Source: Phycisphaerae bacterium (GTDB taxonomy: Bacteria; Planctomycetota; Phycisphaerae; Sedimentisphaerales; Anaerohalosphaeraceae). From it: a DNA stretch of 53,247 nt. Within the stretch, counting starts at the first letter, position 1. The number at the start of each line of letters is the position of its first letter. The stretch covers positions 1-53,247 of the forward strand of contig JAAYCR010000095.1 in the NCBI GenBank assembly GCA_012729675.1, given 5' to 3'. Shown here piece after piece: positions 7,096-43,954 of this stretch. The notes beneath the pieces are model-generated. The model saw only the letters and a program-made list of their open reading frames with translations. It was not told the DNA's origin and searched no databases. Both the position numbers and the translations under genes were made by a program.

Positions 7096-9159
<2,064 letters not shown>

Positions 9160-9340
9160 ATGCGTCACGGGGCAGCGGGCAGGCTCGCAGGTCTTCTGCA
9201 ATGGCGTCGGGCGCGATGGTTTGACGGCGGAAAAAAATTAAAAAAAGGCCGGACGCTGTTTCATTGAGACACATATAAATATTTGCCTTATAGAAATTTA
9301 CGGCGATTTTTCAGAATCCGAATAAATCGGAATTTTATGT

Positions 9341-9368
9341 TTGACTATCCCGTAGGAGACGGTATAAT
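9341..9368 (+). promoter_or_regulatory. Near-consensus sigma70 promoter (TTGACT-16 nt-TATAAT) driving the pspA operon
   Basis: TTGACT at 9341-9346 and a perfect TATAAT at 9363-9368. A ~125-nt leader with inverted repeats (cagcttc...gaagctg; ccggtttcgggccgg) precedes the pspA ATG at 9500. Confidence 0.4.
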
Positions 9369-9499
9369 TATGTCAGCTTCGTGCCGCTCGCGTGAAGCAG
9401 CACACGTTATGAAGCTGGAAAAATGATCAGAAAGTCTCGAATGGCTTTCGTCATTGGTGATTCCGGTTTCGGGCCGGAAGCCGAAGAAAGGGGAACACT

Positions 9500-10183
9500 A
9501 TGGGCATTTTCAAACGTCTCCACCGTATCACCCTCGGTCGGATCGAAGCTTTTTTGGACAGAGCGGAAGATCCGGAAAAAGTATTTCCTGTTCTTATTCA
9601 GGAAATGGAATCTCAACTCCAGGCCGCCACAGACGCCGAGGCCAAAGCCTTGGCCGCCCTGAAAGGGGCACAGCGGGATTTTCAGCGTCAACAGGACAAG
9701 GTCCAGCGGTTTGCGCAGGGTGCGGCATTGGCCCTCAAAAACGGCGATGAGGCCACCGCTCGCATGTCCGTCGAGGCGCAACTCGAAGCGGAAAAAATGC
9801 TTGCGATTTCCCAGCAGAACGTGGACATGGCCACAGACGCGCGCGATCACGCCACGGCGGCACGACGGAGAATTCAGCGTCAGCTTGAAGAACTGATGAT
9901 GAAAAAGGACGATCTTCTGACTCGTGCCCGCGTGGCCAAAACGCAGCAAAAGATCCAGCGTACCGTCGGCGGCTCTGTCGGGTCGTCGGACAGCATTTTG
10001 GATGCGGTTGCCCGGCTGGAGTCCGGCATCGAAGAGGCCGAGGCCGAATTGGAGATTCAGGCCGATCTGACCGGCGAGTCGTATGCCGCGCCGTCGCTGG
10101 AACGGCGATTGGCGGAACTGGATCGCCAGTCCGAGATCGAAAAACGGCTCGATGCGATTCGACAGCAGGTCGCTAACGAATAA
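9500..10183 (+). CDS. pspA: PspA/IM30/Vipp1 family protein (paralog 1)
   Basis: The N-terminus MGIFKRLHRITLGRIEAFLDRAEDPEKVFPVLIQEMESQL matches the canonical PspA start (MGIF..., AEDP, QEME). Coiled-coil-rich, 227 aa. Shine-Dalgarno AAAGGGGAA. Confidence 0.9.
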   Translation: MGIFKRLHRITLGRIEAFLDRAEDPEKVFPVLIQEMESQLQAATDAEAKALAALKGAQRDFQRQQDKVQRFAQGAALALKNGDEATARMSVEAQLEAEKMLAISQQNVDMATDARDHATAARRRIQRQLEELMMKKDDLLTRARVAKTQQKIQRTVGGSVGSSDSILDAVARLESGIEEAEAELEIQADLTGESYAAPSLERRLAELDRQSEIEKRLDAIRQQVANE

Positions 10184-10306
10184 GAACCGACGGGCATTCT
10201 CCGTCGGATCGGATGTCGGTCTATAGATGAGAGGTCTGAATCGTGCGGGGTGACCGCGCATCAGGTCTCGACGGGGAGTTGCCGTCTTGTGCAAAGGAGA
10301 TTGACG

Positions 10307-10975
10307 ATGAGTATTTTTGATCGAATACGCCGTATCACCAAGTCCAATGTGAATTGGCTGCTGGATATGGCCGAGCCGGCCGAGCAGGAACTGGAAGCTC
10401 GCATCCGTGAACTGGAAGAAACCCTGATGGAAGGGCGTGAAAGCGCCGCCGCTTATGGCGCCACCTGCCGACGGCTTGCCAATGAACTCTCCCAGTTGAA
10501 GACGCGGGAAGCAGAGTGTCTGCAACGCGCCGAAGCCGCCATGAAGGCCGGGGATGAAAAAACGGCCCGTGCGGTTCTCCAGCAGAAGGTTCAGTTGTCC
10601 GAGCGCATCGCGCAAATGACGCCGGGCGCCGAAAAAGCCCAACACACGTTTGAGAAGCTCCGGGACAATCTGGTTGTGCTCCAACAGCAGTTAAAAGATG
10701 CCAAGCTCAAGCTTCAGGACCTGCGTACGCGCCTGAAGATTGCCGACGCCCAAAAGCAGTTTGATGCGCATTTGCAGAAATCCGTCTCGACGCATCCGGA
10801 CGGTCTGGCGTTTGAGCGTCTGGAAGATCAGGTTGCTCAACGCGAGGCGGAGGTCGAAGTCCGCGCCGAGTTGCAGGCCGGGGCGATGAGCGATTACGAG
10901 CTGGACCGGCAGTCGCGCGACTTGCAGGTCGAGGCCGAATTGCAGGCGCTCAAAGATAAACTGGACGGCCGGTAG
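10307..10975 (+). CDS. PspA/IM30 family protein (paralog 2)
   Basis: The start MSIFDRIRRITKSNVNWLLDMAEPAEQELE (ATG 10307) has a strong AAAGGAG Shine-Dalgarno 7 nt upstream; the track start 10250 is an extension. Coiled-coil, 223 aa. A 7-bp stem hairpin (ccgacgg...ccgtcgg, 10186-10215) lies in the 123-nt spacer after paralog 1. Confidence 0.85.
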   Translation: MSIFDRIRRITKSNVNWLLDMAEPAEQELEARIRELEETLMEGRESAAAYGATCRRLANELSQLKTREAECLQRAEAAMKAGDEKTARAVLQQKVQLSERIAQMTPGAEKAQHTFEKLRDNLVVLQQQLKDAKLKLQDLRTRLKIADAQKQFDAHLQKSVSTHPDGLAFERLEDQVAQREAEVEVRAELQAGAMSDYELDRQSRDLQVEAELQALKDKLDGR

Positions 10976-10995
10976 CGCAGAAAGGAGCCGATGCG

Positions 10996-11655
10996 ATGAT
11001 GGAATTGCTCTATGCGGCGTTTTTGCCGGGCAATCTGTTCTTTACAGTGCTCTTGCTGCTGGTGCTGCTCTATTGGCTTCTGGTGATACTGGGCGCAATG
11101 GATTTTAATTTTCTGGACATCACCTTTGACGGCGATGTGGACATGGATGTCGATGTGGACGCCGATGCGGATATGGAGTTTCACCCCGGCGGCATTATGC
11201 GGAGCATAATGGATTTTTTTTACATCGGCGAAGTGCCGATGATGGTCTTGGTCAGCCTGTTCGCGCTGTCGGCCTGGACGATTTCGGTATTGGCCAATTA
11301 TTACCTTAATCCGAACGGATTGCTGATTCTGCTGCTGCCGATTCAGGCCGCCAATCTGCTGGTCAGCGGCGTCATCGTCAAGGTCGTCGGCGTGCCGCTG
11401 AAAGTGCTGTTTCGCTCGTTCGAGAAGGACGCCAACGCGCCGCGGCAGGTGGTCGGACGCATCTGTAAAATCGTCACCACCGAAGTATCCGGCAAGCGCA
11501 TCGGCCAGGGCGAAATGAGCGGCAAAGGCGCCCCGATTCTGCTGAATGTCATTGCCGAAGGCGACCATGTGTTTCACAAAAATGACGAGGCGGTCGTGGT
11601 CGGGAAAGACCCCGAAACAAACGTGTATAAAATCGCACCTGTAGAAATCGATTAA
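10996..11655 (+). CDS. YqiJ/NfeD-like membrane protein (DUF1449-type; flotillin partner)
   Basis: N-terminal TM helices, an acidic DVDMDVDVDADADME stretch, further TM helices, and a C-terminal soluble OB-like domain. Its position immediately upstream of a flotillin gene matches yqiJ-yqiK and yuaF-floT. AAGGAG Shine-Dalgarno. Confidence 0.6.
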   Translation: MMELLYAAFLPGNLFFTVLLLLVLLYWLLVILGAMDFNFLDITFDGDVDMDVDVDADADMEFHPGGIMRSIMDFFYIGEVPMMVLVSLFALSAWTISVLANYYLNPNGLLILLLPIQAANLLVSGVIVKVVGVPLKVLFRSFEKDANAPRQVVGRICKIVTTEVSGKRIGQGEMSGKGAPILLNVIAEGDHVFHKNDEAVVVGKDPETNVYKIAPVEID

Positions 11656-11672
11656 TGTTAAAGGAGATGATT

Positions 11673-13664
11673 ATGTTGGCGATAGTAACCGAAGCATTGG
11701 GCGTGGTCTTGACCCTTTCACTGATTATTGTGGTCGGGCTTCTTGCCCTGTTTGTCAAGTGTTATAAGAAAGTATCTCAAGGCCAGGCGCTGATTCGCAA
11801 CGGCATGGGAGGAACGCAGGTGAGCTTTTCGGGAAAGATGGTCATCCCGATCCTCCACAAAGTCGAGTTTATGGATATTTCCGTCAAACGCATCGAGATC
11901 GACCGGCACGGCGAGTCGGGGCTGGTCTGCAAAGACAACCTGCGCGCCGATATCAAGGTGGCGTTTTTCGTGCGGGTCAACAATTCGATTGATGACGTCA
12001 AAAAGGTCGCCCAGTCGCTGGGCTGTGCCCGCGCGTCGGACGAACGGGCGCTGTACGAGCTGTTTGACGCCAAGTTTTCCGAGGCCCTCAAGAGCGTCGG
12101 CAAGCGCTTTGATTTTGCGGAGCTGTACGTGTCCCGCGTGGAATTCAAAGAGGAGATCCTCCAGATCATCGGCACAGACCTGAACGGGTATGTGCTTGAG
12201 GATGCGGCCATCGATTACCTGGAGCAGACCGACAAGAAACTGCTCAACCCCGACAACATTCTGGACGCCGAGGGCATCAAGAAGATTACCGTGCTGACCG
12301 CTGCGCAATACGAGATGGCCAACAGCCGCGAACGCGAAAAAGATAAGACCATCACACAGCAGAATGTCGAGGCACAGGAAGCGATTCTTGAACTGAACAA
12401 GCAATTGGCCGAGGCGGAAGCCAAGCAGAAACGCGAAATCGCCACTGTTCAGGCGCGCGAAGAAGCCGAAGCCAAAAAAGTGCAGGCCGAAGAACGCCAG
12501 AAGCACGAACGCGCACGCATCACCGCTGACGAAGAAATCGCGGTGGCCGAAGAAAACCGGCTGCGGCAGATCATTGTCGCGGCCAAAAATAAAGAACGCA
12601 CCGACGCGGTTGAAACCGAGCGCGTCGAACGCGACCGCGGGCTTGAGCGCGTCGAACGCGAACGGCTGGTGACGATTGCACAGGTCGAAAAAGACAAGAT
12701 CGTCGAAGGCGAGAAGAAGAATCTTCAGGCCGCGATCCGGGAGCGCGTCACGGTCGAAAAGACGGTGGTCGCCGAAGAGGAACGCATCAAAGACACCCGC
12801 GAATTCGCCACCGCCGACCGAAGCAAGCGCGTCGAGATCACCAAGGCCGAAGAACAGGCCGAACAGGCGCTGGTCATCGACATCAAAAAGGCCGAGGCGG
12901 CCAAGAAGGCCGAAGAGTTTTACGCCCAGCAGAAGCTTATCGACGCCGAGGCCAATCTGGAAGCGTCCCGGAAAAACGCCGAGGCCAAAAAAACCATCGC
13001 CGCCGCCCAGATCAAGGAACACGCCGTGCAGGGCATGGCCGAGGCCGAGGTGCAGGAAGCCAAGGCCGTCGCGCTGGAAAAAGAAGGCACTGCTGAGGCG
13101 ACGGTGATGGAGCGCAAGTATCATGCCGAGGCCGACGGCATCCGCGACAAGGCCGAAGCGATGAAGATTTTCGACGCCGTGGGCAAAGAGCACGAGGAAT
13201 TCAAGCTCAAGCTCAACAAAGATCTGAAAATCGAGCTGGCCGAGGTGCACGTCCACAAAGACATCGCCGCCGAACAGGCCAAGATTGTCGGCGAAGCCCT
13301 TAAGTCGGCCCGCATCGACATCGTCGGCGGCGACAACAACTTCTTCAATCGGCTGGTCAATTCGATCACCACGGGCAAATCCGTTGACCGGATGGTCGAT
13401 AACAGCGCTGTGCTGGCCGACGTTCGGCAGGCACTGCTGGGCAAAGACGCCGATGAATCGGTCGCCAAGATTCGCCAGTTTGTCTCCCGGTTCGGCGTTA
13501 CCAGCGAAGACGTCAAAAACCTGTCCGTCTCGGCGCTGGTGATGCAGATGATGGACAAGGCCGACAAAAAAGACAAGGGCGTGCTTGGCTCGATTCTGGA
13601 AACGGTCAAACAAAGCGGCCTGGCCGATCTGCCCGCCAAAGACCTTGGTTTATCGGGCAAATAA
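11673..13664 (+). CDS. Flotillin-like SPFH/Band-7 protein (YqiK/FloT-type) with a long E/A/K-rich coiled-coil
   Basis: An N-terminal TM helix, then an SPFH domain (…VSKRIEIDRHGESGLVCKDNLRADIKVAFFVRV…), then ~300 aa of EA-repeat coiled-coil. AAGGAG Shine-Dalgarno 6 nt before ATG 11673; the track start 11655 overlaps the upstream stop. Confidence 0.85.
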   Translation: MLAIVTEALGVVLTLSLIIVVGLLALFVKCYKKVSQGQALIRNGMGGTQVSFSGKMVIPILHKVEFMDISVKRIEIDRHGESGLVCKDNLRADIKVAFFVRVNNSIDDVKKVAQSLGCARASDERALYELFDAKFSEALKSVGKRFDFAELYVSRVEFKEEILQIIGTDLNGYVLEDAAIDYLEQTDKKLLNPDNILDAEGIKKITVLTAAQYEMANSREREKDKTITQQNVEAQEAILELNKQLAEAEAKQKREIATVQAREEAEAKKVQAEERQKHERARITADEEIAVAEENRLRQIIVAAKNKERTDAVETERVERDRGLERVERERLVTIAQVEKDKIVEGEKKNLQAAIRERVTVEKTVVAEEERIKDTREFATADRSKRVEITKAEEQAEQALVIDIKKAEAAKKAEEFYAQQKLIDAEANLEASRKNAEAKKTIAAAQIKEHAVQGMAEAEVQEAKAVALEKEGTAEATVMERKYHAEADGIRDKAEAMKIFDAVGKEHEEFKLKLNKDLKIELAEVHVHKDIAAEQAKIVGEALKSARIDIVGGDNNFFNRLVNSITTGKSVDRMVDNSAVLADVRQALLGKDADESVAKIRQFVSRFGVTSEDVKNLSVSALVMQMMDKADKKDKGVLGSILETVKQSGLADLPAKDLGLSGK

Positions 13665-13774
13665 CAGACGGTGACCGCTAACTGAACCCTGCGGTCGGTC
13701 TGTGGTGGCGCTGGACAGCATAGCGCCGCCGCGGCCGAACCCGGCGTGAATCGAATTTCGCAAAGAAACGACCT

Positions 13775-16700
13775 ATGGCAGACAAAAACGAACACACGAC
13801 ACAGGCCCCCGCCGCATCGGATACGCTGCAGGGCGGCACCTACGAGGTGATTCAGAATCGCCTCGCAACGCACGGCAAAGACCTGCTGGGCCGCCTGACC
13901 AAACTCAATACGCTGCGTAAGAGCGTTTTCGGCGCCATCGATACCAAGCTGCTGTCCAGCGACCGCATTACCACCGACAACTACTGTGTGCCGCGCGATA
14001 TGGTGTCCATCGGGGATTGTTTTATCTTCGGCTACAATGTCTTTATCGGGCTTCGCACGGAAACGACGCTGGCAGATGTCTTCACGATTTATCGCCGGCA
14101 GGACGGGACGATGGTTCCCTGCGGGCTGGAGATGATCGGCAATGCGACGTTTGAGACGGATTTCAAAAATCTCTACAAATACTATCGCTACGCGACTTTT
14201 GTCAAGTTCGCCATCATCGGCCCTCATCTGTTTATGGTCTTTCGCATCGGCAAAGACATCACCGACATCAAGACCTTTAAATGGCTCATGCGCAGCGACC
14301 GTCTGGAATACATCGATAACCGCAGCGATCACGAGTACCGATACCCCCCGCAGCATGAGTTCGAATGGACGCGCGTCACGCAGGATATGCATCGCAGCGG
14401 CCTGCATCCGCACATCTCCATCGAAGACAAGGTCTTCGTCGAGACCACCGAAGGCGATTTGACAATCAAGGTCGAAGACAACACCGCAAGCGGGCAGGGC
14501 ATTTACAGCGAACCGGTTGACGATCCCGACCAGACGCTCAGCGATGCGGAGATCTATTACGCGATTGTCGGCGAGATTGTCCTGCTGAAAATCCGTCCGT
14601 ACAAGGAAAAGCTCTTCCGCTATTTCATTTATAACCATAAGATTCAGCAGGCGCTTCGGGTCGATTCGATCCAGGACGCCTGTGTGCTGCTGCCGGAAGG
14701 CCACGGCCTGGTGTTCCCCCGCGGCTACTATCTCAAGACCGGCCAGGTCAAGCAGTTCGATACCGACATCCGCGACCTGATTTTTGAAAAACGCATCGGG
14801 TCGCCCAACGGCGAGGACACGCTGTATGTGTTTTACAATCGGCTCAGCGGCGATTATGTGCTGCTGTCGTACAATATGATCGAACAGACCATGCTGGTGC
14901 CGACCGTCTGCAACGGCTACTCGTTTTTTGACGACGGCACGCTGCTGCTGTTCCGCGCCGACGGCGAGCCGCAAAAGCACCACGTCGTTCAAATCTGGCA
15001 GACGCCGTACTACCATCCCGATCACCCGATCGCGGTTCGCACCGATACAGACCTCTACAAAATCGGCAACAAAACCATTGTCCGCTGTATGGCCGAGTGT
15101 ACGGAATTGCTGAACCTGATTCATAAAGACAAGCCCTATGCGGAGTTGTATGTCGATATCAGCAAGAAGGCCGAAGGGTTGTGCGACAGCTATTTCTGGC
15201 TGGGCGAGGCGGTCGTCGGCAACCTTCTGGAGCCGCTCAAGGCCATTCAGCAGGCGGCGACGGCGGCGATTGACGAATACGAAAAAGTCGTGCGGACCCG
15301 CCAAAGCACCCGCGACCAGATCCAGCAGGTCCGGCAGCGCATCACCGAGGCGATTGATGCGATTGACGATGCCGTCCCCGACGACATCGATTTTTATGTG
15401 ACGCATCTGACGACACTGCGAACGCTTCGCGGCCAGGCCGTATCGCTCAAAGACCTGCGGTACGCCGACCTCGACCTGGTCGCGTCGCTCGAAAACGACG
15501 TGGCCGAACACGCCGATCGGCTTGCCGAACAATGCGTGCAATTTTTGCTCCAGCCGGAATCGCTGGAGCCGTACCGGCAGCGCACACAGCATCTGGCCGA
15601 GCAGGTGCCCGGTCTTGAAAAGGCCGCCGACGCCAAAGCACTTCGCCAACAGACGGATGAGGCGGCCGGACAACTGGAAATGCTCACCGAGATCGTCAGC
15701 AACCTGAAGATTACCGACGCGACCGAAACCGTGGCGATCATCGACGCGATCTCGCTGGTCTATTCGGAGATCAATCAGCTCAAGTCGCGCCTGCGCAACA
15801 AGCATCAGGACCTGGCCGCCGTCGAAGGCCGCGCCGAGTTCGCCTCGCAGATCAAACTCATCGAACAATCCGTGATTAACTATCTGGAGGTCTGCGATAC
15901 GCCGGAAAAATGCGATGAGTACTTGACCAAAATTTCCGTGCAGCTCGAAACGCTGGACAGCCGCTTTGCCGAGTTCGACGAATTCGTGCTGCTGCTGACC
16001 GAAAAACGCGAGGATGTCTATAACGCCTTCGAATCGCGAAAGCAGTTGCTCATCCAGCAGCGTAATCAGCGAGCGGTGGTGGTGATGACCGCCGCCGAGC
16101 GCGTCCTCAAGGGCATCCAAAACCGCGTCTATGCGATGACCGATGTCAACGAGATCAACGGCTACTTCGCCTCCAACCCGATGATCGAGCGGGTGCGGGA
16201 CAATATCGCCCAACTCGAACAACTGGGCGATTCGGTCAAGGCCGAAGACATCAAGAGCCGCCTCAAGACCCTCCAGCAGGACGCCATCCGCCAACTCAAA
16301 GACAAGCAGGCCCTGTACGAAGACGGCGACAACATCATCCGGTTCGGCAGCCACCGCTTCTCCGTCAACAAGCAGCCGCTGGAAGGCACCCTCGTCCGAC
16401 AGGGCGAGGCGCTGTATTATCATCTGACCGGTACGGGCTTTTTCGAACCGATTGACGATGTCGCCATCACGGCCGCCAAAGACCTCTGGCAGATGGACGT
16501 CGTCTCCGAAAGCGAAGCGGTCTATCGCGCCGAATATCTCGCCTGGCAGATGCTCGAACAGATGGACGACGCCGCCCGCGCCGAAGCGCTTCGTGATGAA
16601 TCGCTTGAGGGGCTGACCGGCCGCATCCAGGCGTTTATGGCGCCTCGGTTCGATGAGGGTTATGTCAAGGGCGTGCACGACCATGACGCCGCCAAAATTC

Positions 16701-19108
16701 TGCACGCGCTGCTGATGCTGCACGCGACCATCGGTCTGCTGCGTTACCCGGCGGCTTGCCGGACGCTGGCGGCGGTCTTCTGGGCGTTGTTTGAAGAAGG
16801 GCAGGAAAAGAAGCGCATCGCCGACTTGCTGGCCGGGGCAGGCCATATCCAATCGCTCTTTGCCGACCCGAACGTCCGCAAGAGCTATCAGGCGAGGTTG
16901 GCCGAACACATCGGCCGCTTTGCCGAAACCTCCGGCCTGTTTGATTCGGCGCAGGCCGGGCTGGCGGCCGAGTATCTGTTTGAGGAGCTTGCCGAGACAG
17001 GCCCCTTTGCGGCCAGCCGACGGGCGAGCGATCTGCGGCGGGACTTCGAGCAATACCTCCGCGATCAGGATTCCTTCGAGCGGTTCGCCGATACGATTCA
17101 GTCGCTGGCGTCGGATCCGCCGGCCGTGTTCGGCCTGCTGCGGGACTGGGTGGCGTCATGGCTGGCTCGCACCGACCGAAACGAGATGGCCGAATACATC
17201 GACGAGGCCGCCTTCCTGCTCCATCCGCTGTCGCCGCCGCGTACGGTGATCGATCACGCGGTCACGTGTACCATCGCGGAGATGGCCGGGTCGCATCCGA
17301 GGATACAGCAGGGCCTCTACAGGCTGCATTACGGTGATTTTGTGACGCGGCTTTACCACCATATGCATCATGTCACGCCCCGGTTTATCCAGTGCCAGCA
17401 GGCCAAAAAACGGCTCGTCGAACAATACAACCAGGCGCTTTGCCTGGAGGAATTCCAGAGCAAGGTGCTGACCACCTTTGTGCGCAACAAACTCATCGAT
17501 TTGGTCTATCTGCCGCTGATCGGCGACAGCCTGGCCAAGCAGATCGGCACTGCCGATCAAACCAAACGCACCGACCGGCAGGGCCTGCTGCTGCTGATAT
17601 CTCCGCCCGGCTACGGCAAAACAACGCTGATGGAATACGTCGCCAACCGGCTGGGGCTGATTTTCGTCAAGGTCAACGGCCCGGCCCTCGGCCGTCAGGT
17701 CACCTCGTTCGATCCCGGCGAGGTGTCCAACGCCGCCGCCCGCAAGGAACTGGAAAAGCTGAATCTGTCCTTCGAGATGGGCGACAACGTGATGATTTAC
17801 GTCGACGACATCCAGCACACCAACCCGGAATTCTTGCAGCAGTTTATCTCGCTGTGCGACGCCCAGCGCCGCGTCGAAGGCGTCTATAAAGGCCGCTGGC
17901 GCACCTATGATTTTCGCGGCAAGCGGGTTTGCGTGGTCATGGCGGGCAACCCCTACACCGAAAGCGGCGAAAAGTTCAAAATTCCCGATATGCTCAGCAA
18001 CCGCGCCGACACTTACAACATCGGCGATATCGTCGGGGATAACGCCGACGCCTTTGAACTGAGCTTCATCGAAAACAGCCTGACGTCCAACTCGGTTCTG
18101 CAAAGCGTTGCCCGACGCAGCCAGAACGACATCGATGTTATGATCAAAATGGCTCAAACCGGCGACAAAGAGGGCATTGAGTTCGAAGACACGTACTCGG
18201 CCGACGACCTGAACGAGTACGTCAACACGCTTCGGAAGCTCTTTGTTGTGCGTGATGTCGTGCTCAAGGTCAACCAGCAGTACATCGCCTCCGCCGGGCA
18301 GGCCGACGCATACCGTACCGAACCGCCGTTTCTGCTGCAAGGCTCGTACCGCAATATGAACCGCATCGCATCCCGCGTGCTGCCGGTGATGAACGATCAG
18401 GAACTGTGGACGCAAATCTATTCCAGCTATGAGCAGGACGCCCAGACGCTGACTTCCGGGGCCGAGTCGAATCTGCTCAAGTTTCGCGAGATGATCGGGC
18501 AATTGGACGACACGCAGGCCGCCCGCTGGTCGGACATCAAGAAAACGTTCTGTCGTAACAAGCTGCTCGGCGGCGACTCCGACGACAAAATCTCTCAGGT
18601 CGTCGGCCAGTTGAATGCCTTCGGCGCCGGGCTGGACGCCATCCGCGACACCATCGCCGACAGCGTGATGACCCTCGCCGCCAAAACGGTCGAGCCGGCT
18701 CAAACGGCATTGGCACAGGAACAGTTCAATCAAGTTTCTGATCAGATGCTCGAACGCCTCAATCAGGTGATTGCGGCCATCAAAGAACAAGGGACGGCAC
18801 TGGTGCAGCGGCAAACCGAACACGGGCAGCTCGAAGAGGCCAAACAGTCGCAAAAAAGTACCGAAATGCTGGTCTCCGTTCTGGAAGAGCAATTCCGCAC
18901 GCTGGAAACATGGCTGATTCCGGTACACAAAAGCGACGCGGATCGAGTCGAATATTTTCAACACCTGATGGAACGCTTCGAAACGATGGTCTCCGGCTAC
19001 ACGCGCCTGATGGACGCCTTGAGGAAAAAATACGAACCATTGCTGAAAAAATCAAAAACCGAAAACCCGTCCCCTTCAAAGCCGTCGCATAAAAAGGGGC
19101 AAAAATAA
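13775..19108 (+). CDS. Giant (1777 aa) protein with N-terminal beta-rich region, long helical middle, and a C-proximal AAA_5/MoxR-type ATPase domain
   Basis: Uninterrupted ORF in frame with its neighbours. Walker A-like LLLLISPPGYGKTT (17609-17626). Walker B VMIYVDDIQH (17789-17809). Sensor VCVVMAGNPYTESGEKFKIPDMLSNRADTY (~17945), like the xNP/'DRF' region of MoxR/McrB/midasin-type AAA_5 domains. No other domain recognised by eye. Confidence 0.75.
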   Translation: MADKNEHTTQAPAASDTLQGGTYEVIQNRLATHGKDLLGRLTKLNTLRKSVFGAIDTKLLSSDRITTDNYCVPRDMVSIGDCFIFGYNVFIGLRTETTLADVFTIYRRQDGTMVPCGLEMIGNATFETDFKNLYKYYRYATFVKFAIIGPHLFMVFRIGKDITDIKTFKWLMRSDRLEYIDNRSDHEYRYPPQHEFEWTRVTQDMHRSGLHPHISIEDKVFVETTEGDLTIKVEDNTASGQGIYSEPVDDPDQTLSDAEIYYAIVGEIVLLKIRPYKEKLFRYFIYNHKIQQALRVDSIQDACVLLPEGHGLVFPRGYYLKTGQVKQFDTDIRDLIFEKRIGSPNGEDTLYVFYNRLSGDYVLLSYNMIEQTMLVPTVCNGYSFFDDGTLLLFRADGEPQKHHVVQIWQTPYYHPDHPIAVRTDTDLYKIGNKTIVRCMAECTELLNLIHKDKPYAELYVDISKKAEGLCDSYFWLGEAVVGNLLEPLKAIQQAATAAIDEYEKVVRTRQSTRDQIQQVRQRITEAIDAIDDAVPDDIDFYVTHLTTLRTLRGQAVSLKDLRYADLDLVASLENDVAEHADRLAEQCVQFLLQPESLEPYRQRTQHLAEQVPGLEKAADAKALRQQTDEAAGQLEMLTEIVSNLKITDATETVAIIDAISLVYSEINQLKSRLRNKHQDLAAVEGRAEFASQIKLIEQSVINYLEVCDTPEKCDEYLTKISVQLETLDSRFAEFDEFVLLLTEKREDVYNAFESRKQLLIQQRNQRAVVVMTAAERVLKGIQNRVYAMTDVNEINGYFASNPMIERVRDNIAQLEQLGDSVKAEDIKSRLKTLQQDAIRQLKDKQALYEDGDNIIRFGSHRFSVNKQPLEGTLVRQGEALYYHLTGTGFFEPIDDVAITAAKDLWQMDVVSESEAVYRAEYLAWQMLEQMDDAARAEALRDESLEGLTGRIQAFMAPRFDEGYVKGVHDHDAAKILHALLMLHATIGLLRYPAACRTLAAVFWALFEEGQEKKRIADLLAGAGHIQSLFADPNVRKSYQARLAEHIGRFAETSGLFDSAQAGLAAEYLFEELAETGPFAASRRASDLRRDFEQYLRDQDSFERFADTIQSLASDPPAVFGLLRDWVASWLARTDRNEMAEYIDEAAFLLHPLSPPRTVIDHAVTCTIAEMAGSHPRIQQGLYRLHYGDFVTRLYHHMHHVTPRFIQCQQAKKRLVEQYNQALCLEEFQSKVLTTFVRNKLIDLVYLPLIGDSLAKQIGTADQTKRTDRQGLLLLISPPGYGKTTLMEYVANRLGLIFVKVNGPALGRQVTSFDPGEVSNAAARKELEKLNLSFEMGDNVMIYVDDIQHTNPEFLQQFISLCDAQRRVEGVYKGRWRTYDFRGKRVCVVMAGNPYTESGEKFKIPDMLSNRADTYNIGDIVGDNADAFELSFIENSLTSNSVLQSVARRSQNDIDVMIKMAQTGDKEGIEFEDTYSADDLNEYVNTLRKLFVVRDVVLKVNQQYIASAGQADAYRTEPPFLLQGSYRNMNRIASRVLPVMNDQELWTQIYSSYEQDAQTLTSGAESNLLKFREMIGQLDDTQAARWSDIKKTFCRNKLLGGDSDDKISQVVGQLNAFGAGLDAIRDTIADSVMTLAAKTVEPAQTALAQEQFNQVSDQMLERLNQVIAAIKEQGTALVQRQTEHGQLEEAKQSQKSTEMLVSVLEEQFRTLETWLIPVHKSDADRVEYFQHLMERFETMVSGYTRLMDALRKKYEPLLKKSKTENPSPSKPSHKKGQK

Positions 19109-19122
19109 CGAAATGACGTCAA

Positions 19123-19839
19123 ATGGGCAAGATCGATCGCCTAAAACGCATTACCATGGCCCGGATTGAGGCCTTTTTGGATTCGCTCGAAAAACCCGAA
19201 CTGATACTGCCCCAACTCCTCAACGAGATGGAACAGCAGATGCGCGAGGCGGCCGCGGCCAAGGCCAAGGCACTCTCGGCGGTCAAGGGCGCGCGGCGTC
19301 GGCTTGATGAGGCCGCCGGAAGATCGCTTCGGCTGGAACGGGGCGCGGCGCTGGCCGTCCGGGCCAATGATCTGAAAACCGCCCGTCAGGCGCTGGCTGC
19401 CCAACTTGAGGCCGAAAAGCAGTATCAACGGCATCAGACGGAACTGGAAAACGTGGAGAAGGCCTATCTGGCCGCGGAGGCGGTCTTTAAACAGATTTCG
19501 GAAAACCGGGATGCGCTTAAGAAGAAAAACGCACAGCTTCTCAAGCAGCATCGCCAACAGCAGGTAATCCAGATACTGTGCGACCAATATACGCGATCCG
19601 TCATCGAACCCAAACAGAGTATCCTGGACGCCGTGATCCGCATCGAGACCAATATCGAGCAGCAGCAAATCAAACTTGAGGCGAATAACGACCTCGCCAG
19701 GATTCTCGGTGCCGGCGCCATTGAAGAACACATCAAATCCCTCGAACACATAGCCCAGGTCGAGGAGCGTCTGGCCGCGTTAAAAAAACAGCTTCGCGCG
19801 GAAAACGCCCCGGATTCGCAACACAACCCGGGCAATTGA
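19123..19839 (+). CDS. PspA/IM30 family protein (paralog 3)
   Basis: MGKIDRLKRITMARIEAFLDSLEKPELILPQLLNEMEQQMREA has the PspA-like N-terminus (ARIEAFLD…EKPE…NEMEQQ). It starts 15 nt after the stop of the giant ORF. 238 aa coiled-coil. Confidence 0.8.
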   Translation: MGKIDRLKRITMARIEAFLDSLEKPELILPQLLNEMEQQMREAAAAKAKALSAVKGARRRLDEAAGRSLRLERGAALAVRANDLKTARQALAAQLEAEKQYQRHQTELENVEKAYLAAEAVFKQISENRDALKKKNAQLLKQHRQQQVIQILCDQYTRSVIEPKQSILDAVIRIETNIEQQQIKLEANNDLARILGAGAIEEHIKSLEHIAQVEERLAALKKQLRAENAPDSQHNPGN

Positions 19840-19881
19840 CCGCCCCTCTCATTGTCGAGCAAACAAACCCAACCGGGGGTA

Positions 19882-19909
19882 TTGAGCTTTCCTGGAGTGG
19901 GGGTATAAT
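19882..19909 (+). promoter_or_regulatory. Sigma70-like promoter (TTGAGC-16 nt-TATAAT) upstream of the permease gene
   Basis: TTGAGC at 19882-19887 and TATAAT at 19904-19909, ~60 nt upstream of ATG 19973. Confidence 0.3.
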
Positions 19910-19972
19910 CGGCGTTTCGCGGCGCGGCGTGAGCGCTTGGTCTGATTTCAAACAAGAGATGACAGGCGGTAT

Positions 19973-21211
19973 ATGATTACGGCGATTTTGATTTTTGCGT
20001 TGACGTATCTGATAATCTGCGGACGCAGGCTGCATTTTATCCGGCTGGGGCGACCGGCCGGCGTTATGCTGGGGGCGGTGCTGATGGTCGCCGCACGGGT
20101 CATCACCCCGGCACAGGCGTATGAACTGGTCAACTGGAACACGATAGTCCTGCTGCTGGGGATGATGATTATTATCGAGCATCTGGCGGATGCGGAATTT
20201 TTCGAGCTGATCGCCGGGTGGATTCTCGGCCGCGGGCTGTCCTCGCGCGGGCTGCTGGCAGTGGTGGTGTTTCTCATCGGCTCGCTGGCGGCGTTTCTGG
20301 TCAATGATATCGTGTGCATTTTTTTTACGCCGCTGCTGCTGGTGATGCTGCGAAGGCGCAGCCTGCCGCCGCTGCCGTTTTTGCTGGCGCTGGCGACTTC
20401 GGCCAATCTGGGCGGGCTGATTGCGTTTACCGGCAACCCGCAGAATATGATTATCGGACATCTGTCGGGGATTTCGTATGCCCGGTTTTTTGTGCTGATG
20501 CTGCCGGTGGGCCTGCTGACGCTGGCGGTCAACTATGCCCTGTTGGTGTGGATGTATCGAAAGGAACTGGACAAGGCCGACGGTCATCCGGCCGCCAAAG
20601 AAGATATCCCCTCGCCGAAACCGCTGCTGAAGCGATCGCTGCTGGTGACCGCGCTGGTCATCGCGGGGTTTTTTGCGGGCGGCAATATGGCCTGGGTCGC
20701 GCTGGCCGGGGCAACGCTGCTGCTGCTTTTGGCGCGACGGGAGGAGGTCGCCGTCTTGAGACGCATCGACTGGAATCTGCTGGTGTTCTTTGCGGGGCTG
20801 TTTGTGGTGGTCGGGGCATTGTCGCGCTCCGGGGCAACGGCGTATATCGCCGCCGCGGCGGATCGCTATATTCACGGCCAAAGCATCGCATCGTTCTGGG
20901 CGTTCGGCGCTATCAGCGTCGTCTGTTCGAATCTGTTTTCCAACGTGCCCTATGTGTTGGTGGCGGCCGAATGGGTCGAGCAACTGCCCGACCCGACGCT
21001 GATGTGGTACATCCTGGCGTTTGCCAGCACGGTGGCGGGCAATCTGACGATCCTCGGGTCGGTGGCCAATGTCATCGTCGTCGAACGGGCGCGGGGGGCC
21101 TGCGACATCGGCTTCGGCGACTTCCTGCGGTTCGGGGTACCCTCGACCGTGCTGAATTTTGTCGTGGGTATGGCGTTTCTGACGCTCTATCACCATTTGG
21201 AATGGATATAA
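19973..21211 (+). CDS. ArsB/NhaD-superfamily anion permease (YbiR-like)
   Basis: ~12 TM helices and a two-repeat permease architecture. The motif NWNTIVLLLGMMII is typical of ArsB/NhaD/CitMHS permeases. Confidence 0.65.
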   Translation: MITAILIFALTYLIICGRRLHFIRLGRPAGVMLGAVLMVAARVITPAQAYELVNWNTIVLLLGMMIIIEHLADAEFFELIAGWILGRGLSSRGLLAVVVFLIGSLAAFLVNDIVCIFFTPLLLVMLRRRSLPPLPFLLALATSANLGGLIAFTGNPQNMIIGHLSGISYARFFVLMLPVGLLTLAVNYALLVWMYRKELDKADGHPAAKEDIPSPKPLLKRSLLVTALVIAGFFAGGNMAWVALAGATLLLLLARREEVAVLRRIDWNLLVFFAGLFVVVGALSRSGATAYIAAAADRYIHGQSIASFWAFGAISVVCSNLFSNVPYVLVAAEWVEQLPDPTLMWYILAFASTVAGNLTILGSVANVIVVERARGACDIGFGDFLRFGVPSTVLNFVVGMAFLTLYHHLEWI

Positions 21212-40041: not shown

Positions 40042-42096
40042 CTATTGCGGCGATTTAAGCCGGTCTTGAGCGATGGCATTCACGGCGTCGTGTTCGGCCC
40101 TGTTCGCATACCCTATCTTCGGCGTCGGAGGCGGGTCCATCTGTGCACCGAGAAAAAACCCCGGATGCGGCGGCTGGTTGTAGCCGACATTCTGCCAGGC
40201 CACACTCATGCGATACACCGGGTCGTGCATCAGCGTATAAAGCCGATGCTCCGTTGGAATCGTCGTGGTAAAGACCAGCAGGCGGGTGTTATCCTGATGC
40301 CGCCAGATGACCTCTTCGCGCCAGTCGCCGAGAATATCGGCGACGAGGCCGGGCGTTTTTTTGGTGCCGTTATTGGACGCCGCTCCGTCGTCATGCGCCG
40401 CCAGGATACGATCCAGACGGTTGGTGTTCCAGTTCCACTTCTCGATCACCGTCCCGTCCAGCAGTTCGCGCAGCAGGTCACCCGTCCACCAGACGCCGAA
40501 ATTGACCTGGGACGGCCGTGACGACGCGATGATTTCGCCTTTGGCACTGTACAGCGCACGGCTGTTGGTCGCCCATGCCTCGTAACCGGGATGACGCGGG
40601 TCAATATCAAACGCAACGCCGCGGCCCACATCACCGGTCGCCGGCGCCGACCACAGCACCTGCCCCGTGGCGGCATCGCGGAACGACATTCCGATGCCGC
40701 CGTTGGAACCCGGCGATTCATGGGGCATGAACACCTCAAGCCCGGGCCGCGAGGGATCCATATTCGACAGATGCAGCGCGTCGCCGTGTCCCAGCCCGGT
40801 CGAATACAGTCCTGTTCCGTCATGCCGGATGGCGGCCGAACCGTAAATAATATCGTCCTTACCGTTGCCGGTTACGTCCGCGACGGCGAGGCTGTGATTG
40901 CCTTGGCCGATATAGGCGATGTTAATGTTGTCGTTGATGCCCCGGCCGGCCTTAAATATCCATTCCTTCGTCAGTTTTCCGTCTCGCCAGTTGTAGGCGG
41001 CAATCTCGTTTCGTGCCGGATACCCCGACTGCGGCCCGTAATAGCCCCGCGCCATAATCAGGCTCGGCCGTGCGCCGTCGAGGTACGCCACGCCGGCCAG
41101 GAAGCGATCCGCACGGTTGCCGTAGTTGTCTCCCCATTGCTTGACATCGACGCGATTCGGATAGAAATCCGTCGTCGCCAGCGCCGCTCCGGTCAAGCCG
41201 TCAAAAACGGTAAGGTATTCCGGGCCGGCGAGAATATAGCCTGCGGAATTGCGATAGTCGGCGTCTGCGTCGCCGATGACCGTTCCCGCACCGTCTATCG
41301 TCGCCTCGGCCGTTTTACAGGCGATCTCGGCCCGTCCGTTGCCGTCAAAGTCATAGACGATAAATTGGGTGTAATGAGCCCCGGCGCGGATATTCCGCCC
41401 CAAGTCAATTCGCCACAGAAACCGTCCGTCCAGCGTGTAGGCGTCCAGATAGACATTGCCTGTATAACCGGAATGAGAATTGTCTTTGGCGTTGGAGGGG
41501 TCCCACTTGACGATGATTTCATATCGGCCGTCGCCGGTCAGGTCGCCCACGCTCAGGTCGTTGGGGCTGTAGTCGTAGCGCACGCCGTCGGGTGTTATCC
41601 CTCCTGCCGGCCGCCGCAGGGGGATCTCCAGATAGGGGTGACGCCAGACCGAAACCGGTTCGGACGCCGGCTGTTCGACCCCGTCAACCACCGCCGCAAC
41701 ACGGTAGGTACTGTTGATTGCCGTGGTATCGATGTACTGTGTCGCCCCGGTCAGCGGTGCAGAAGTGATCCTTGTCGAACCCCGATAGAGATGGAAGCCG
41801 ATGTCCTGTCCCCACTCCGTGCCCAGCAGCCGCCAGCTCACGAAGACCTCGTCGCCGCTGGTCCGCACCGCCGTCACCCCGCGATCCAGCCATTCCATCT
41901 GGCGACCGACGGGGCGGCTCTGCCCGGCCCATGCATCAGAATCGCCGGCATCTGTGTCGCTTTCGCCGATGGGTATGCCCTCTGCCTTGGCGTCTTCGGC
42001 CAGCCTTGCCGATGCCGGATCAAGCAGATTCGATTCTTCGCCCGCCGCGGCGGACACACATAAGCCAATGAATCCCAATAAGATAAGGTTTCGCAT
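40042..42096 (-). CDS. Polysaccharide lyase family 11 rhamnogalacturonan lyase (YesW/YesX-like beta-propeller)
   Basis: Signal peptide, then FG-GAP-like repeats (…DLTGDGRYEIIVKWD…, …VYDFDGNGRAEIACK…, …VADVTGNGKDDIIYG…) with overall similarity to PL11 lyases. Confidence 0.75.
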   Translation of the reverse strand: MRNLILLGFIGLCVSAAAGEESNLLDPASARLAEDAKAEGIPIGESDTDAGDSDAWAGQSRPVGRQMEWLDRGVTAVRTSGDEVFVSWRLLGTEWGQDIGFHLYRGSTRITSAPLTGATQYIDTTAINSTYRVAAVVDGVEQPASEPVSVWRHPYLEIPLRRPAGGITPDGVRYDYSPNDLSVGDLTGDGRYEIIVKWDPSNAKDNSHSGYTGNVYLDAYTLDGRFLWRIDLGRNIRAGAHYTQFIVYDFDGNGRAEIACKTAEATIDGAGTVIGDADADYRNSAGYILAGPEYLTVFDGLTGAALATTDFYPNRVDVKQWGDNYGNRADRFLAGVAYLDGARPSLIMARGYYGPQSGYPARNEIAAYNWRDGKLTKEWIFKAGRGINDNINIAYIGQGNHSLAVADVTGNGKDDIIYGSAAIRHDGTGLYSTGLGHGDALHLSNMDPSRPGLEVFMPHESPGSNGGIGMSFRDAATGQVLWSAPATGDVGRGVAFDIDPRHPGYEAWATNSRALYSAKGEIIASSRPSQVNFGVWWTGDLLRELLDGTVIEKWNWNTNRLDRILAAHDDGAASNNGTKKTPGLVADILGDWREEVIWRHQDNTRLLVFTTTIPTEHRLYTLMHDPVYRMSVAWQNVGYNQPPHPGFFLGAQMDPPPTPKIGYANRAEHDAVNAIAQDRLKSPQ

Positions 42097-42199
42097 CCAC
42101 TATACCCCAAGCGGCCAATCCCTATACTTTCAAGGGATCGCACCACAAAAAAAAAGACCCGTCATTCCTTATTACGGAAAGTGACGGGTCTGGCCAAAT

Positions 42200-42273
<74 letters not shown>

Positions 42274-42284
42274 GGATACTCACA

Positions 42285-42458
42285 TTATTCCATGTTGATG
42301 GCTTCGACGGGGCACTCGTCCACGCAGACGCCGCAATCGACGCACTTTTCGGCATCGACGAACGCCTTGCCGTTCTTCATTTCAATCGCTTCGCTGGGGC
42401 ATGAATCCACACACGACTCGCAACCGGTACAGGTACTGGCTTCAACTTTTGCCGGCAT
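42285..42458 (-). CDS. 2x[4Fe-4S] ferredoxin (57 aa)
   Basis: MPAKVEASTCTGCESCVDSCPSEAIEM…AEKCVDCGVCVDECPVEAINME contains two CxxCxxCxxxCP clusters. GGAAAGGA Shine-Dalgarno before ATG 42458; the track TTG start 42533 is an extension. Confidence 0.85.
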   Translation of the reverse strand: MPAKVEASTCTGCESCVDSCPSEAIEMKNGKAFVDAEKCVDCGVCVDECPVEAINME

Positions 42459-43042
42459 CGTAAAATCCTTTCCAAAAGATCGATTACTTGTATTTATTAA
42501 ACAGGCAGAAGAATTTACGAAATTTTTGCCCAATACTCAACAAAAATTTTATTATTTTCAACGTATTTATCAAAACAGCCCCAATATCCCCATAAAACCA
42601 CGCCGGGATGTGGCTGCACACGCTGGCCTGTGGTTCTGGGTGCTTGCTGTCCGGTTCCGGCGTTGATTGGCTTTTTTTCAGTCAACAGTGATCAGTTATC
42701 AGTAAACAGTTGTTGAATAAGATCTTATGGTTTATGCAAAATAGAAAATTGGGTTCGTGTGGTCATTGTTGAGATGATAGAGGTTAGGGATTAGAGGATA
42801 GAAGATAGATATGAGTTCTTATTGGCTATTGAATAATTATCTAAACACATTACAGTTTCAACTTTGCACAGTGAAAAAACGAACGAAGCAAATTTTGCTG
42901 CCGCGACTGTCTTACAAGGCTATCTCATACCCATAGTATCGGCAGGAATACGTTCGTTTATTTGACTTTTCAAAGATGAATAAAATGCAGACTCGACCTT
43001 GGACAATGCTGATAATGTTAACAGGTTGGCTATTGAAATGAA

Positions 43043-43405
43043 ATGGACCCAAAATCAAACCCCTACAAATTCTCCCTCCTCCTCACCCTGATTCTGTCCA
43101 TTGTGATAGGTATAGCCCTATGGTATTTCAACCGTATACACCCCCTGTGGATTTACCTTCTTACCCTGAGCCTGACTATATTTTTATTTTACGGTTATGA
43201 CAAATATCAGGCAATCAACCAAAATACCAGAATCCCTGAGGCAATACTCCACCTTATAGCCTTGGCAGGAGGCACAGTAGGTGCATTTGCCGGTCAGCTA
43301 TTTTTTTGACATAAAACAAAGAAATTGAGTTTCAGGGTAATTTTTATTACAATTGCAATTGTACAAATAGGATTAATCTTGTGGTGGTATGCAAGAAGGG
43401 TATAA
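43043..43405 (+). pseudogene. DUF1294-family small membrane protein interrupted by an in-frame TGA (43307-43309)
   Basis: The N-part ends …RIPEAILHLIALAGGTVGAFAGQLFF*. The same frame continues HKTKKLSFRVIFITIAIVQIGLILWWYARRV*. Intact DUF1294 proteins read …GG..GA..G..LF-R-HKT(R/K)K…, so the TGA sits where an Arg (CGA) codon is expected. It is preceded by a T7 homopolymer. Confidence 0.55.
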
Positions 43406-43527
43406 AAAAACAGGGAAATGTTTCCTATTGTTTATGTAGAATTCTCAATACCTATAGAAATAAAAACGTGTTTTTTTGCGATAAACGAAAAACAATCAAA
43501 AAACCATTTTGTCGGAAAGGAAGCGTT

Positions 43528-43803
43528 ATGGGAAACTTAATCATTCAATTGATCAGCGGGGCTGTTGGTGGGAATATTGCAGGGGGTTTGTTTAAGAAAA
43601 TATCCCTTGGTACACTGTGGAATTCTGTTGCCGGTATTGTCGGCGGTGGGATTGGAGGCCAACTGCTGGGTCTTCTGGGCATTTCCACGGGCAGCGGCGG
43701 GATGGATATCGGCAGTATTGTGGGAAATATTGCAGGTGGTGGAGTGGGCGGCGGCGTCTTGTTGGCAATCGTAGGTCTTATCAAGAAAGCCATGAGCAAA
43801 TAA
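43528..43803 (+). CDS. GlsB/YeaQ/YmgE-family small Gly-zipper membrane protein (transglycosylase-associated protein family)
   Basis: MGNLIIQLISGAVGGNIAGG…GIVGGGIGGQLLGLLG…GNIAGGGVGGGVLLAIVGLI. AAAGGAAG Shine-Dalgarno before ATG 43528; the track start 43381 is an extension. Confidence 0.65.
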   Translation: MGNLIIQLISGAVGGNIAGGLFKKISLGTLWNSVAGIVGGGIGGQLLGLLGISTGSGGMDIGSIVGNIAGGGVGGGVLLAIVGLIKKAMSK

Positions 43804-43954
43804 AACTGCCGTTGTTTCGATTGATTATGTTTTACCGGCCTGACAACTTTGCCAGTACGCACCCCTGAGCGAATGGTCTGAGAAAAGCAGAACAGAGAGG
43901 GGACACTGTCACAGCTCTGACTACTTTTCCAATGGATTTTATAAGGAAAATAAA

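Follow-up and report, generated by a model that had tools for sequence, protein, structure and literature searches.

A Phycisphaerae locus with three PspA paralogues, probably a clade-level elaboration of a widespread YqiJ/NfeD-like–flotillin–giant ATPase module

The stretch of DNA considered here, hereafter the window, comprises 53,247 nucleotides of a Phycisphaerae bacterium of the family Anaerohalosphaeraceae (contig JAAYCR010000095.1 of assembly GCA_012729675.1, positions 1 to 53,247). Open reading frame (ORF) calling yields six genes between positions 9500 and 19839, all on the + strand, which encode two PspA paralogues, a YqiJ-like membrane protein, a flotillin-like protein, a 1777-aa protein that I call the giant ATPase, and a third PspA. 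An initial annotation, made from the letters alone, had proposed six same-strand genes of these families behind a strong TTGACT-16-TATAAT promoter. The promoter match, the common strand and all six family assignments are borne out by the searches described below, with the YqiJ_N score borderline and the Band_7 domain of the flotillin recognized only from its N-terminal 230 residues. The features of the locus are as follows.

9341-9368, + strand: sigma-70-like promoter TTGACT-16-TATAAT, 11 of 12 consensus positions, the top site in the region, presumed active.
9371-9499, + strand: structured 5' leader RNA of pspA-1, about 130 nt, supported by covariation.
9500-10183, + strand: pspA-1, 227 aa, paralogue group A1 (PF04012, 84.9 bits).
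10187-10207, + strand (inverted repeat reported on the minus strand): GC-rich 7-bp hairpin with no T tract, directly after the pspA-1 stop.
10307-10975, + strand: pspA-2, 222 aa, paralogue group A2 (PF04012, 98.7 bits, domain from residue 20-21 of the ORF as called).
10996-11655, + strand: YqiJ/YuaF-like membrane protein, 219 aa (YqiJ_N, 22.9 bits; three transmembrane (TM) segments).
11655-13664, + strand: flotillin-like SPFH protein, 669 aa (Band_7, 47.9 bits on residues 1-230).
13775-19108, + strand: giant soluble ATPase, 1777 aa, DUF3686 family (Pfam, hydropathy, models).
13946-15001, + strand: giant residues 58-409, all-beta propeller within DUF3686 (AlphaFold model, Foldseek).
15050-16312, + strand: giant residues 426-846, long helical rods, including DUF7902 at 596-678.
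16526-17554, + strand: giant residues 918-1260, alpha-helical domain before the ATPase, the least conserved internal region.
17558-18574, + strand: giant residues 1262-1600, single AAA+ module (Pfam, motifs, Foldseek).
18575-19105, + strand: giant residues 1601-1777, helical tail, low confidence (pLDDT mostly 41-65).
19123-19839, + strand: pspA-3, 238 aa, paralogue group A3 (PF04012, 48.0 bits).

The genomic company of the giant ATPase was surveyed in one genome per species, which gave at least 595 relatives. The best-scoring 80 loci were analysed: their ORFs were called and searched with the window proteins and with iterated hidden Markov models (HMMs), and counts were limited to loci with enough flanking DNA. 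These loci cover Planctomycetota, Bacteroidota, Verrucomicrobiota, Desulfobacterota, Kiritimatiellota, Omnitrophota and Clostridia. The flotillin gene lies directly upstream of the giant ATPase gene, on the same strand, in 60 of the 63 informative loci and is itself preceded by a YqiJ-like gene in 54 of the 63, whereas a PspA gene is found nearby in 17 of 52; relaxing the PspA search to E values up to 10 across the loci added no candidate. PspA-positive loci occur in Kiritimatiellota, in Omnitrophota, in some Phycisphaerae and in Bacteroidota, where the gene precedes yqiJ. The gene is absent from all sampled loci of Verrucomicrobiota, Clostridia, Desulfobacterota and Pirellulales, and from two Phycisphaerae loci with full flanks, L041 and L076. 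Because of these unequal frequencies and of the PspA-less L041 and L076, it is flotillin and the YqiJ-like protein, not PspA, that behave as the obligate partner. A consistent co-occurrence of the ATPase orthologues with pspA and flotillin, proposed as a check in the initial annotation, is found for flotillin and not for pspA. The best-supported description is that of a YqiJ–flotillin–ATPase core to which PspA is a recurrent add-on. Beyond these genes, clustering of the neighbouring proteins brought out just two families that recur: a 131-aa CesT_Tir_1 protein (E 1e-52) encoded just upstream of PspA in 12 loci, in the PspA-containing layout of Bacteroidota, and a divergent regulator with a helix-turn-helix (HTH) and an S24-like domain in 14 loci. 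Both the CesT/Tir gene and the HTH-S24 regulator are absent from the window operon and from its clade relatives.

In the clade of the window, the order PspA-PspA-YqiJ-flotillin-giant-PspA is found in eight of eight loci (L081, L082, L083, L086-L089 and the window), the giant proteins of the other seven being 61-72% identical to that of the window. Since this order is kept while the flanking genes are wholly different from one locus to the next, the six genes constitute one conserved unit in the clade. In L001, L003, L081-L083 and L087-L089, the gap between the giant gene and the pspA-3 orthologue that follows it is 11-37 nt. The DNA immediately before the six-gene module in L082 (L082:1422-3483) encodes a DDE transposase and an integrase of phage type; this and the unrelated flanks of all relatives suggest that the module moves as a cassette.

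The giant ATPase is a composite protein for which hydropathy predicts no TM segment. Pfam assigns residues 37-474 to DUF3686 (E 3e-182) and residues 596-678 to DUF7902, and also reports AAA (PF00004, 31.9 bits) and AAA_5 (24.5 bits). In the AlphaFold model that covers residues 1-1150 (mean pLDDT 81.5), a helix at 21-52 is followed by the all-beta domain at 58-409, by a stretch of about 420 residues folded into long helices, by a small beta unit and by a helical region at 918-1149. The structures matched by Foldseek to the all-beta domain are propellers (Elp1, CyRPA, the clathrin terminal domain, prolyl oligopeptidase and EED). The model of residues 1101-1777 has a mean pLDDT of 73. Mean column conservation is 0.36-0.46 across residues 1001-1200 and 0.08-0.29 in the tail, with a gap fraction of 0.3-0.7 in the latter, whose last 170 residues or so are variable or absent in most phyla. 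The AAA+ module contains a Walker A motif (SPPGYGKT), a Walker B motif (VDDIQH), a sensor 1 (AGNP) and an NRAD arginine; GYGKT, DDIQH, AGNP and NRAD are conserved at 97-100% in 79 homologues from at least six phyla. Since the catalytic motifs are conserved at close to 100%, the giant ATPase is very probably active. The family is large: a search of 1.84 billion representatives with the N-terminal 1150 residues (E up to 1e-30) retrieves 436 clusters at the 50% identity level, and the majority of full-length matches are about 1600-1900 aa long. The nearest named relatives of the window protein come from Sedimentisphaerales and Anaerohalosphaeraceae, the best non-identical match being 73% identical, and the source databases call the family 'DNA repair ATPase' or 'MoxR-like ATPase'. 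A literature search found no experimental paper on the family and none mentioning DUF3686 or PF12458.

The initial annotation had read the AAA+ module as an AAA_5/MoxR-type domain, which agrees with an AAA_5 score above the Pfam cut-off of 22 bits and with the structural comparison, although AAA (PF00004) scores higher. When the whole module is fitted, the top Foldseek matches are NorQ (9qh4) and CbbQ (6l1q and 5c3c), with TMt values of 0.55-0.60; the fit is poorer for RuvB (about 0.34) and spastin (0.39-0.43), spastin and p97 together spanning about 0.15-0.43, while the E values are alike for RuvB, NorQ/CbbQ and Cdc48. The model also contains a beta-hairpin at residues 1366-1379, between helix alpha3 and strand beta4, that is, a pre-sensor-1 insert, which is absent from classical-clade ATPases such as Vps4, p97 and FtsH. 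By best fit, the module is of the MoxR class, NorQ/CbbQ type, and its 'AGNP...PDML.NRAD' sensor-1/arginine region resembles the MoxR motif. The window ATPase differs from the class (NorQ, CbbQ, RavA) by a Walker B that ends in DD rather than DE, by the fusion of about 1260 N-terminal residues and by the lack of a neighbouring VWA gene in the inspected loci. A parallel with Vps4, drawn in the initial annotation, is weak at the protein level. A Pfam scan detects no MIT domain; because of this lack, of the pre-sensor-1 hairpin and of a better fit to the MoxR class than to spastin, the ATPase as modelled is not Vps4-like. The Vps4/CdvC and ESCRT-III/CdvB pairs do share with the window an AAA+ gene beside genes of the ESCRT-III superfamily, which makes a remodelling role conceivable, but the window ATPase is more than four times larger, carries a propeller and rods, and is linked to PspA facultatively.

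The flotillin-like protein has an N-terminal hydrophobic anchor, a Band_7 domain, a coiled coil of about 270 aa and a C-terminal domain. When the full-length 669-aa protein is compared with Pfam and NCBIfam, nothing is retrieved at E up to 10; residues 1-230 scanned alone reach the Band_7 score given above, at residues 39-181 and against a cut-off of 23.6. The EA-rich coiled coil is possibly what hides the domain in the full-length scan. This coiled coil, put at about 300 aa in the initial annotation, is real: it extends over about 270-300 aa, and residues 230-500 or so consist of 50-78% E, A, K, R and Q. The Flot domain (PF15975) scores 13.9 bits (E 0.059), below its cut-off of 27, and a profile of the flotillin-like proteins matches QmcA weakly (E 0.003). 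The YqiJ-like protein has three hydrophobic TM segments, an acidic loop with a D-x-D pattern and a C-terminal soluble domain. Its YqiJ_N score falls just short of the cut-off of 23; 7 of 21 orthologues match YqiJ_N and 1 of 21 matches NfeD, and the sole match of the orthologue profile in the Protein Data Bank (PDB) is a weak one to YuaF (2k14, E 0.035). Single-sequence PDB searches with the flotillin-like protein, its SPFH part and the YqiJ C-terminus gave no useful match. The acidic repeat loop, DGDVDMDVDVDADADME, occupies residues 45-60 (11128-11175) between TM1 and TM2; the D-x-D pattern also appears in the consensus of the orthologues, and the loop could bind a cation. In gene adjacency, N-terminal anchor and long coiled coil, the pair recalls YqiK-YqiJ of E. 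coli and FloT-YuaF of B. subtilis, in which NfeD/YqiJ-type and SPFH genes are likewise adjacent; neither E. coli yqiJK nor B. subtilis yuaFGI is known to include this ATPase. Three loci have an additional gene of 184-189 aa, coding for Band_7 alone, between the yqiJ-like and flotillin genes (L081:6331-6885, L086:3797-4366 and L008:6996-7547); it is not present in the window. The orthologous Bacteroidota protein has been classed as Band-7 plus coiled coil plus flotillin (PMC11237479).

All three PspAs exceed the PspA_IM30 cut-off (PF04012, 33.9 bits) and match most of the profile (positions 1-216, 1-210 and 4-217 of 220). Hydropathy predicts no TM segment in any of them. Their scores against the NCBIfam PspA equivalog TIGR02977 (97.7, 91.2 and 49.1 bits) lie well under its cut-off of 242.95, and the window operon encodes no PspB, PspC, PspF, YdjG or YdjH. 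On account of the low equivalog scores and of the absence of pspF, pspB and pspC from the operon, a canonical proteobacterial Psp system was rejected as an identity for the locus. The B. subtilis pspA-ydjGHI (samGHI) and E. coli pspFABCDE operons resemble the window in encoding PspA together with membrane partners and differ from it in the partners themselves. The 'MGIFKRLHRIT'-type N-termini of the PspAs resemble helix alpha0 by eye, and polymer formation is predicted from the family. The three proteins fall into three orthologous groups, A1, A2 and A3, with identities to the L081 and L083 orthologues of 78% and 71% for A1, 71% and 58% for A2, and 56% and 42% for A3. A1 and A3 are 38% identical, while A2 is about 21-26% identical to both; A2 is 32% identical to the module PspA of the Kiritimatiellota locus L023 and about 22% to those of Bacteroidota, to which the window PspAs as a whole are about 16-23% identical. 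Since A1 and A3 are mutually closer and A2 is nearer to the Kiritimatiellota protein, these identities suggest that A2 is the older module PspA and that A1 and A3 stem from a later duplication. Judged by sequence, the module PspAs appear to have been recruited from at least two distant PspA lineages.

Between the promoter and pspA-1 lies the leader RNA. The -35 box TTGAC is found at a comparable distance in related loci, and the promoter scan as a whole showed no enrichment (5 sites against 4.8 expected from shuffles). Instances of the leader occur at L081:3999-4138, L082:4544-4682, L083:4699-4830, L086:1439-1571, L087:983-1116, L088:2216-2346 and L089:2195-2324, and in L090-L094. It is thus kept between relatives whose proteins are down to 61-78% identity. 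RNAalifold predicts three hairpins, with compensatory changes in 13 of 32 predicted pairs. The helices tested were P1a, P2 (13 bp) and P3 (10 bp). In a MAFFT alignment of 8 sequences, 97.8% of the cells are paired and 11 pairs show double changes, a result reached by 0 of 500 shuffles and to be compared with 26-51% pairing in slid controls; a model-fitted alignment, which includes 13 distinct sequences, gives 97.8%, 12 double-change pairs and 0 of 500 shuffles, the slid controls overall giving 26-55%. A pattern scan of metagenome contigs brought up five more instances. Four stand directly before pspA-1 orthologues; downstream of the fifth, in L093, no pspA ORF is readable. The covariance model built on the leader, R1, has matches solely in front of pspA-1 orthologues; it matches the window only at the leader and finds no match in 28 other loci, PspA-less modules included, and an Rfam search of 9100-20100 at E up to 1 gave no match. 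Taken singly, the window leader exceeds its shuffles in stability only marginally (z -1.7); the support for the leader therefore comes from covariation, not from folding energy. I regard the leader as a candidate new cis-regulatory RNA of this Phycisphaerae clade, tied to one pspA paralogue. Visual inspection alone points to an outer stem, P1; shifts in alignment register kept it out of the count. A leader peptide was discarded, as the 18-codon ORF starting at ATG 9371 is, on reading by eye, not kept in relatives; so was a conserved anti-Shine-Dalgarno pairing, which was not found, the CUUUC of helix P2 in the window being replaced in L083. RNAalifold also proposed that the start codon pairs at long range with the leader's 5' end; this was set aside in favour of the local stem P1.

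The operon class to which the locus belongs has been described. Ravi et al. (2024, section 19; PMC11237479) reported operons combining a CesT/Tir-PspA dyad, a 3-TM YqiJ/YuaF protein, a flotillin and a giant protein with propeller, coiled coil and AAA+ parts, exemplified in the supplement by Dokdonia donghaensis (ANH61663.1), and proposed a role in membrane dynamics; they noted that abbreviated, PspA-less operons have a wider distribution and may cooperate with PspAs from other loci. The present counts agree with such PspA-less operons, and the Bacteroidota loci retrieved with the window protein reproduce the Dokdonia layout, including CesT_Tir_1 and the divergent HTH+S24 regulator. The window shares with this class the giant family, the YqiJ-like and flotillin partners in the same order and the presence of PspA. 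It departs from it by three PspAs instead of one, two upstream and one downstream of the core, by the absence of the CesT/Tir-PspA dyad and of the divergent cHTH+protease regulator, and by a structured leader of its own. As to whether the exact architecture had been described, which the initial annotation could not verify, the operon class is published, and the three-PspA version is specific to the clade of the window. What was already known is a comparative-genomic prediction, and what is new is the set of three PspAs, the lack of CesT/Tir and HTH-S24 genes and the structured leader.

The reading I consider reasonably probable is that the locus is a Phycisphaerae-clade elaboration of the widespread YqiJ/NfeD-like–flotillin–giant ATPase module to which three PspA groups have been added, and that the operon would be read from the one sigma-70-like promoter through the clade-specific leader RNA. 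A membrane-associated role of the giant ATPase fits this gene context; most plausibly, its substrate is a flotillin/YqiJ scaffold at the cytoplasmic side of the membrane, which it remodels or assembles. What is observed is gene content, linkage, architecture and the conservation of motifs; the mechanism that I infer on top of this runs as follows. The flotillin would be anchored in the inner membrane so that its SPFH domain and coiled coil face the cytoplasm; the lysine-rich KCYKK after the anchor fits the positive-inside rule. With its YqiJ-like partner it would form an oligomeric scaffold, as in other SPFH/NfeD pairs. The giant protein would probably oligomerize by way of its AAA+ module, like other MoxR-class ATPases, and bind the scaffold with its propeller and rods, and ATP hydrolysis would assemble, reshape or dismantle the scaffold. 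The PspAs of the operon would be recruited to the same membrane patches, where they would seal or reshape damaged membrane, and might be a second client of the ATPase; the leader RNA would probably set operon output after transcription start. Parts of this scheme have counterparts elsewhere: an SPFH scaffold is paired with an AAA+ enzyme in HflK/C with FtsH (PMC10936438), which the window recalls although its own ATPase is soluble and without a protease domain, and in B. subtilis the SPFH protein YdjI brings PspA to the membrane (PMC9239133, PMC10936438).

Several points weigh against this reading. MoxR-class ATPases usually pair with a VWA-domain partner, and no VWA-domain gene was seen in the window operon, in the 22 loci inspected closely, in Pfam-annotated relatives or among those recurrent neighbour clusters of the 80 loci that could be identified. 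The ATPase occurs without an adjacent flotillin in L017, L037 and L043 (3 of the 63 informative loci). The literature on the family yields no interaction, localization, expression or phenotype data, and both oligomeric state and membrane topology are deduced. As to the counts, the HMM may have missed PspA in some loci, even if E values up to 10 added none, and the 80 loci, being the best-scoring ones, are no random sample.

Could PspA rather than flotillin be the main client? The giant AAA+ protein would then be dedicated to the energy-consuming work of remodelling or taking apart PspA polymers, as a functional counterpart of Vps4, and flotillin and YqiJ would only provide the membrane platform. 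An ATP-dependent remodelling of PspA was also raised in PMC11237479, and modules of four phyla include pspA genes, which stem from two or more distant PspA lineages, among them the Bacteroidota type that follows a CesT/Tir gene and the A2 type of the window. In addition, pspA-3 begins 14 nt past the stop codon of the ATPase gene, a closeness conserved in the clade, and the maintenance of three paralogues as orthologous groups suggests a heteropolymer with regulated dynamics. However, PspA is missing from about two thirds of the loci, including close Phycisphaerae relatives (L041 and L076), the giant protein has neither MIT nor any other recognizable ESCRT-III-binding domain, and its module, MoxR-like with a pre-sensor-1 hairpin, is not of the classical clade that threads ESCRT-III. 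I hold this alternative to be unlikely. PspA encoded elsewhere in the genome could nevertheless be a client of the ATPase. The initial annotation, in which the giant protein remodels PspA and/or flotillin polymers, is thus favoured in its flotillin half by the flotillin/YqiJ linkage and loses PspA as a constant partner; its remark that no ATPase partner of bacterial PspA is established agrees with a 2025 review, according to which no Vps4-like ATPase is known for bacterial PspA (PMC7619361). A bolder proposal, which I put forward as doubtful, is that in the pspA-bearing lineages the giant ATPase is the missing ATP-driven remodeller of PspA on a flotillin/YqiJ platform and controls the turnover of a three-paralogue heteropolymer, and, separately, that the leader is a new cis-regulatory RNA coupling operon output to an envelope signal.

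Two further readings detach the module from membrane maintenance. Complete differences in flanking genes between close relatives, the transposase and integrase immediately upstream in L082, and the phage-repressor type of the divergent HTH + S24-peptidase regulator in Bacteroidota versions would suit a mobile anti-phage or abortive-infection system, one that detects a perturbation of the membrane or brings it about. This is quite improbable: PADLOC gives no significant match for the six proteins (only weak P-loop and coiled-coil matches to IetA and LmuB, E about 0.004), the family is widespread, stable in its distribution and uniform in architecture, and the components belong to housekeeping envelope-stress families. 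The name 'DNA repair ATPase', which is the Pfam description of DUF3686 copied into NCBI names, would make the membrane genes unrelated neighbours; apart from the names, it has in its favour a weak RuvB_N/RuvB P-loop match and the presence of RuvB among the Foldseek matches of the AAA+ core, and nothing else. Yet RuvB is matched around the P-loop only and gives a poor fit over the module as a whole; Pfam finds no DNA-binding or nuclease domain, clustering of the 80 loci reveals no recurring DNA-repair gene, the literature search gave no paper that names the domain, and a same-strand linkage to flotillin in 60 of 63 loci across phyla cannot be due to chance. A DNA-repair function is hardly credible.

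If the elaborated YqiJ–flotillin–ATPase module is what the locus encodes, it touches two unsettled questions, the disassembly or recycling of PspA/Vipp1 polymers and the function of bacterial flotillin scaffolds. Since hundreds of species encode a strongly conserved ATPase beside flotillin, and a substantial minority encode it beside PspA, the giant ATPase is the most obvious candidate energy source for either polymer; the counts move the likely primary client from PspA to flotillin/YqiJ and leave PspA in second place. The membrane-remodelling idea itself is not new, having been proposed from comparative genomics in 2024 (PMC11237479). Cultured genera with the PspA-containing version include Hymenobacter, Leeuwenhoekiella, Aquimarina and Flavobacterium. 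The leader RNA, a candidate regulatory element, is a small separate lead.

The junctions within the operon measure, in order, 123 nt (pspA-1/pspA-2), 20 nt, a 1-nt overlap, 110 nt (flotillin/giant) and 14 nt. The description of these junctions as short or overlapping in the initial annotation is therefore apt for the 20-nt, overlapping and 14-nt ones and not for the other two. The gap between pspA-1 and pspA-2 ranges from 45 to 171 nt among relatives. In the window it contains the GC-rich hairpin, which was ruled out as a canonical terminator for want of a T tract; it might attenuate or stabilize the transcript and so set the ratio of pspA-1 to the downstream genes. Mechanical calling opens the pspA-2 ORF at a GTG (10250-10975). 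The real start is most likely ATG 10307 and not GTG 10250, because the PspA domain begins only at residue 20-21 of that ORF, the orthologues are 221-225 aa long and an AAGGAG box lies upstream of the ATG. The flotillin and giant genes are nearly adjacent in Planctomycetota and most Verrucomicrobiota loci; in Bacteroidota they are separated by 0.6-2.3 kb containing 1-3 small, poorly conserved ORFs (for example L012:8609-9695, L063:7874-9774 and L060:9036-9940).

On the upstream side of the operon, the window has an FtsH gene at 7096-9159 (+ strand; TIGR01241, 757 bits). By analogy with HflK/C-FtsH, FtsH was considered as a partner of the module and rejected, as no relative has ftsH beside the module; for the same reason, the adjacency is taken to be coincidental. 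The position of ftsH is occupied in the three closest relatives by a conserved gene of 239-240 aa without Pfam match, about 300 nt upstream of pspA-1 (L081:3092-3811, L082:3639-4358 and L086:531-1253). On the downstream side, a gene for a PQQ-like beta-propeller of 405-440 aa directly follows pspA-3 in relatives of the Anaerohalosphaeraceae type (L083:15208-16425, L088:12588-13910 and L089:12570-13853); in its place, the window has a CitMHS transporter gene with a promoter-like site of its own, unrelated to the operon. Further along the window, a patch of low GC content with few ORFs (42001-44000, 43% against about 56% for the window) lies beside a tRNA-Glu gene (42200-42273, - strand) and is followed by genes for a HerA_C-type ATPase (43955-45457, E 5e-219) and a Zn-metallopeptidase (45587-46432). 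This patch could be an insertion site.

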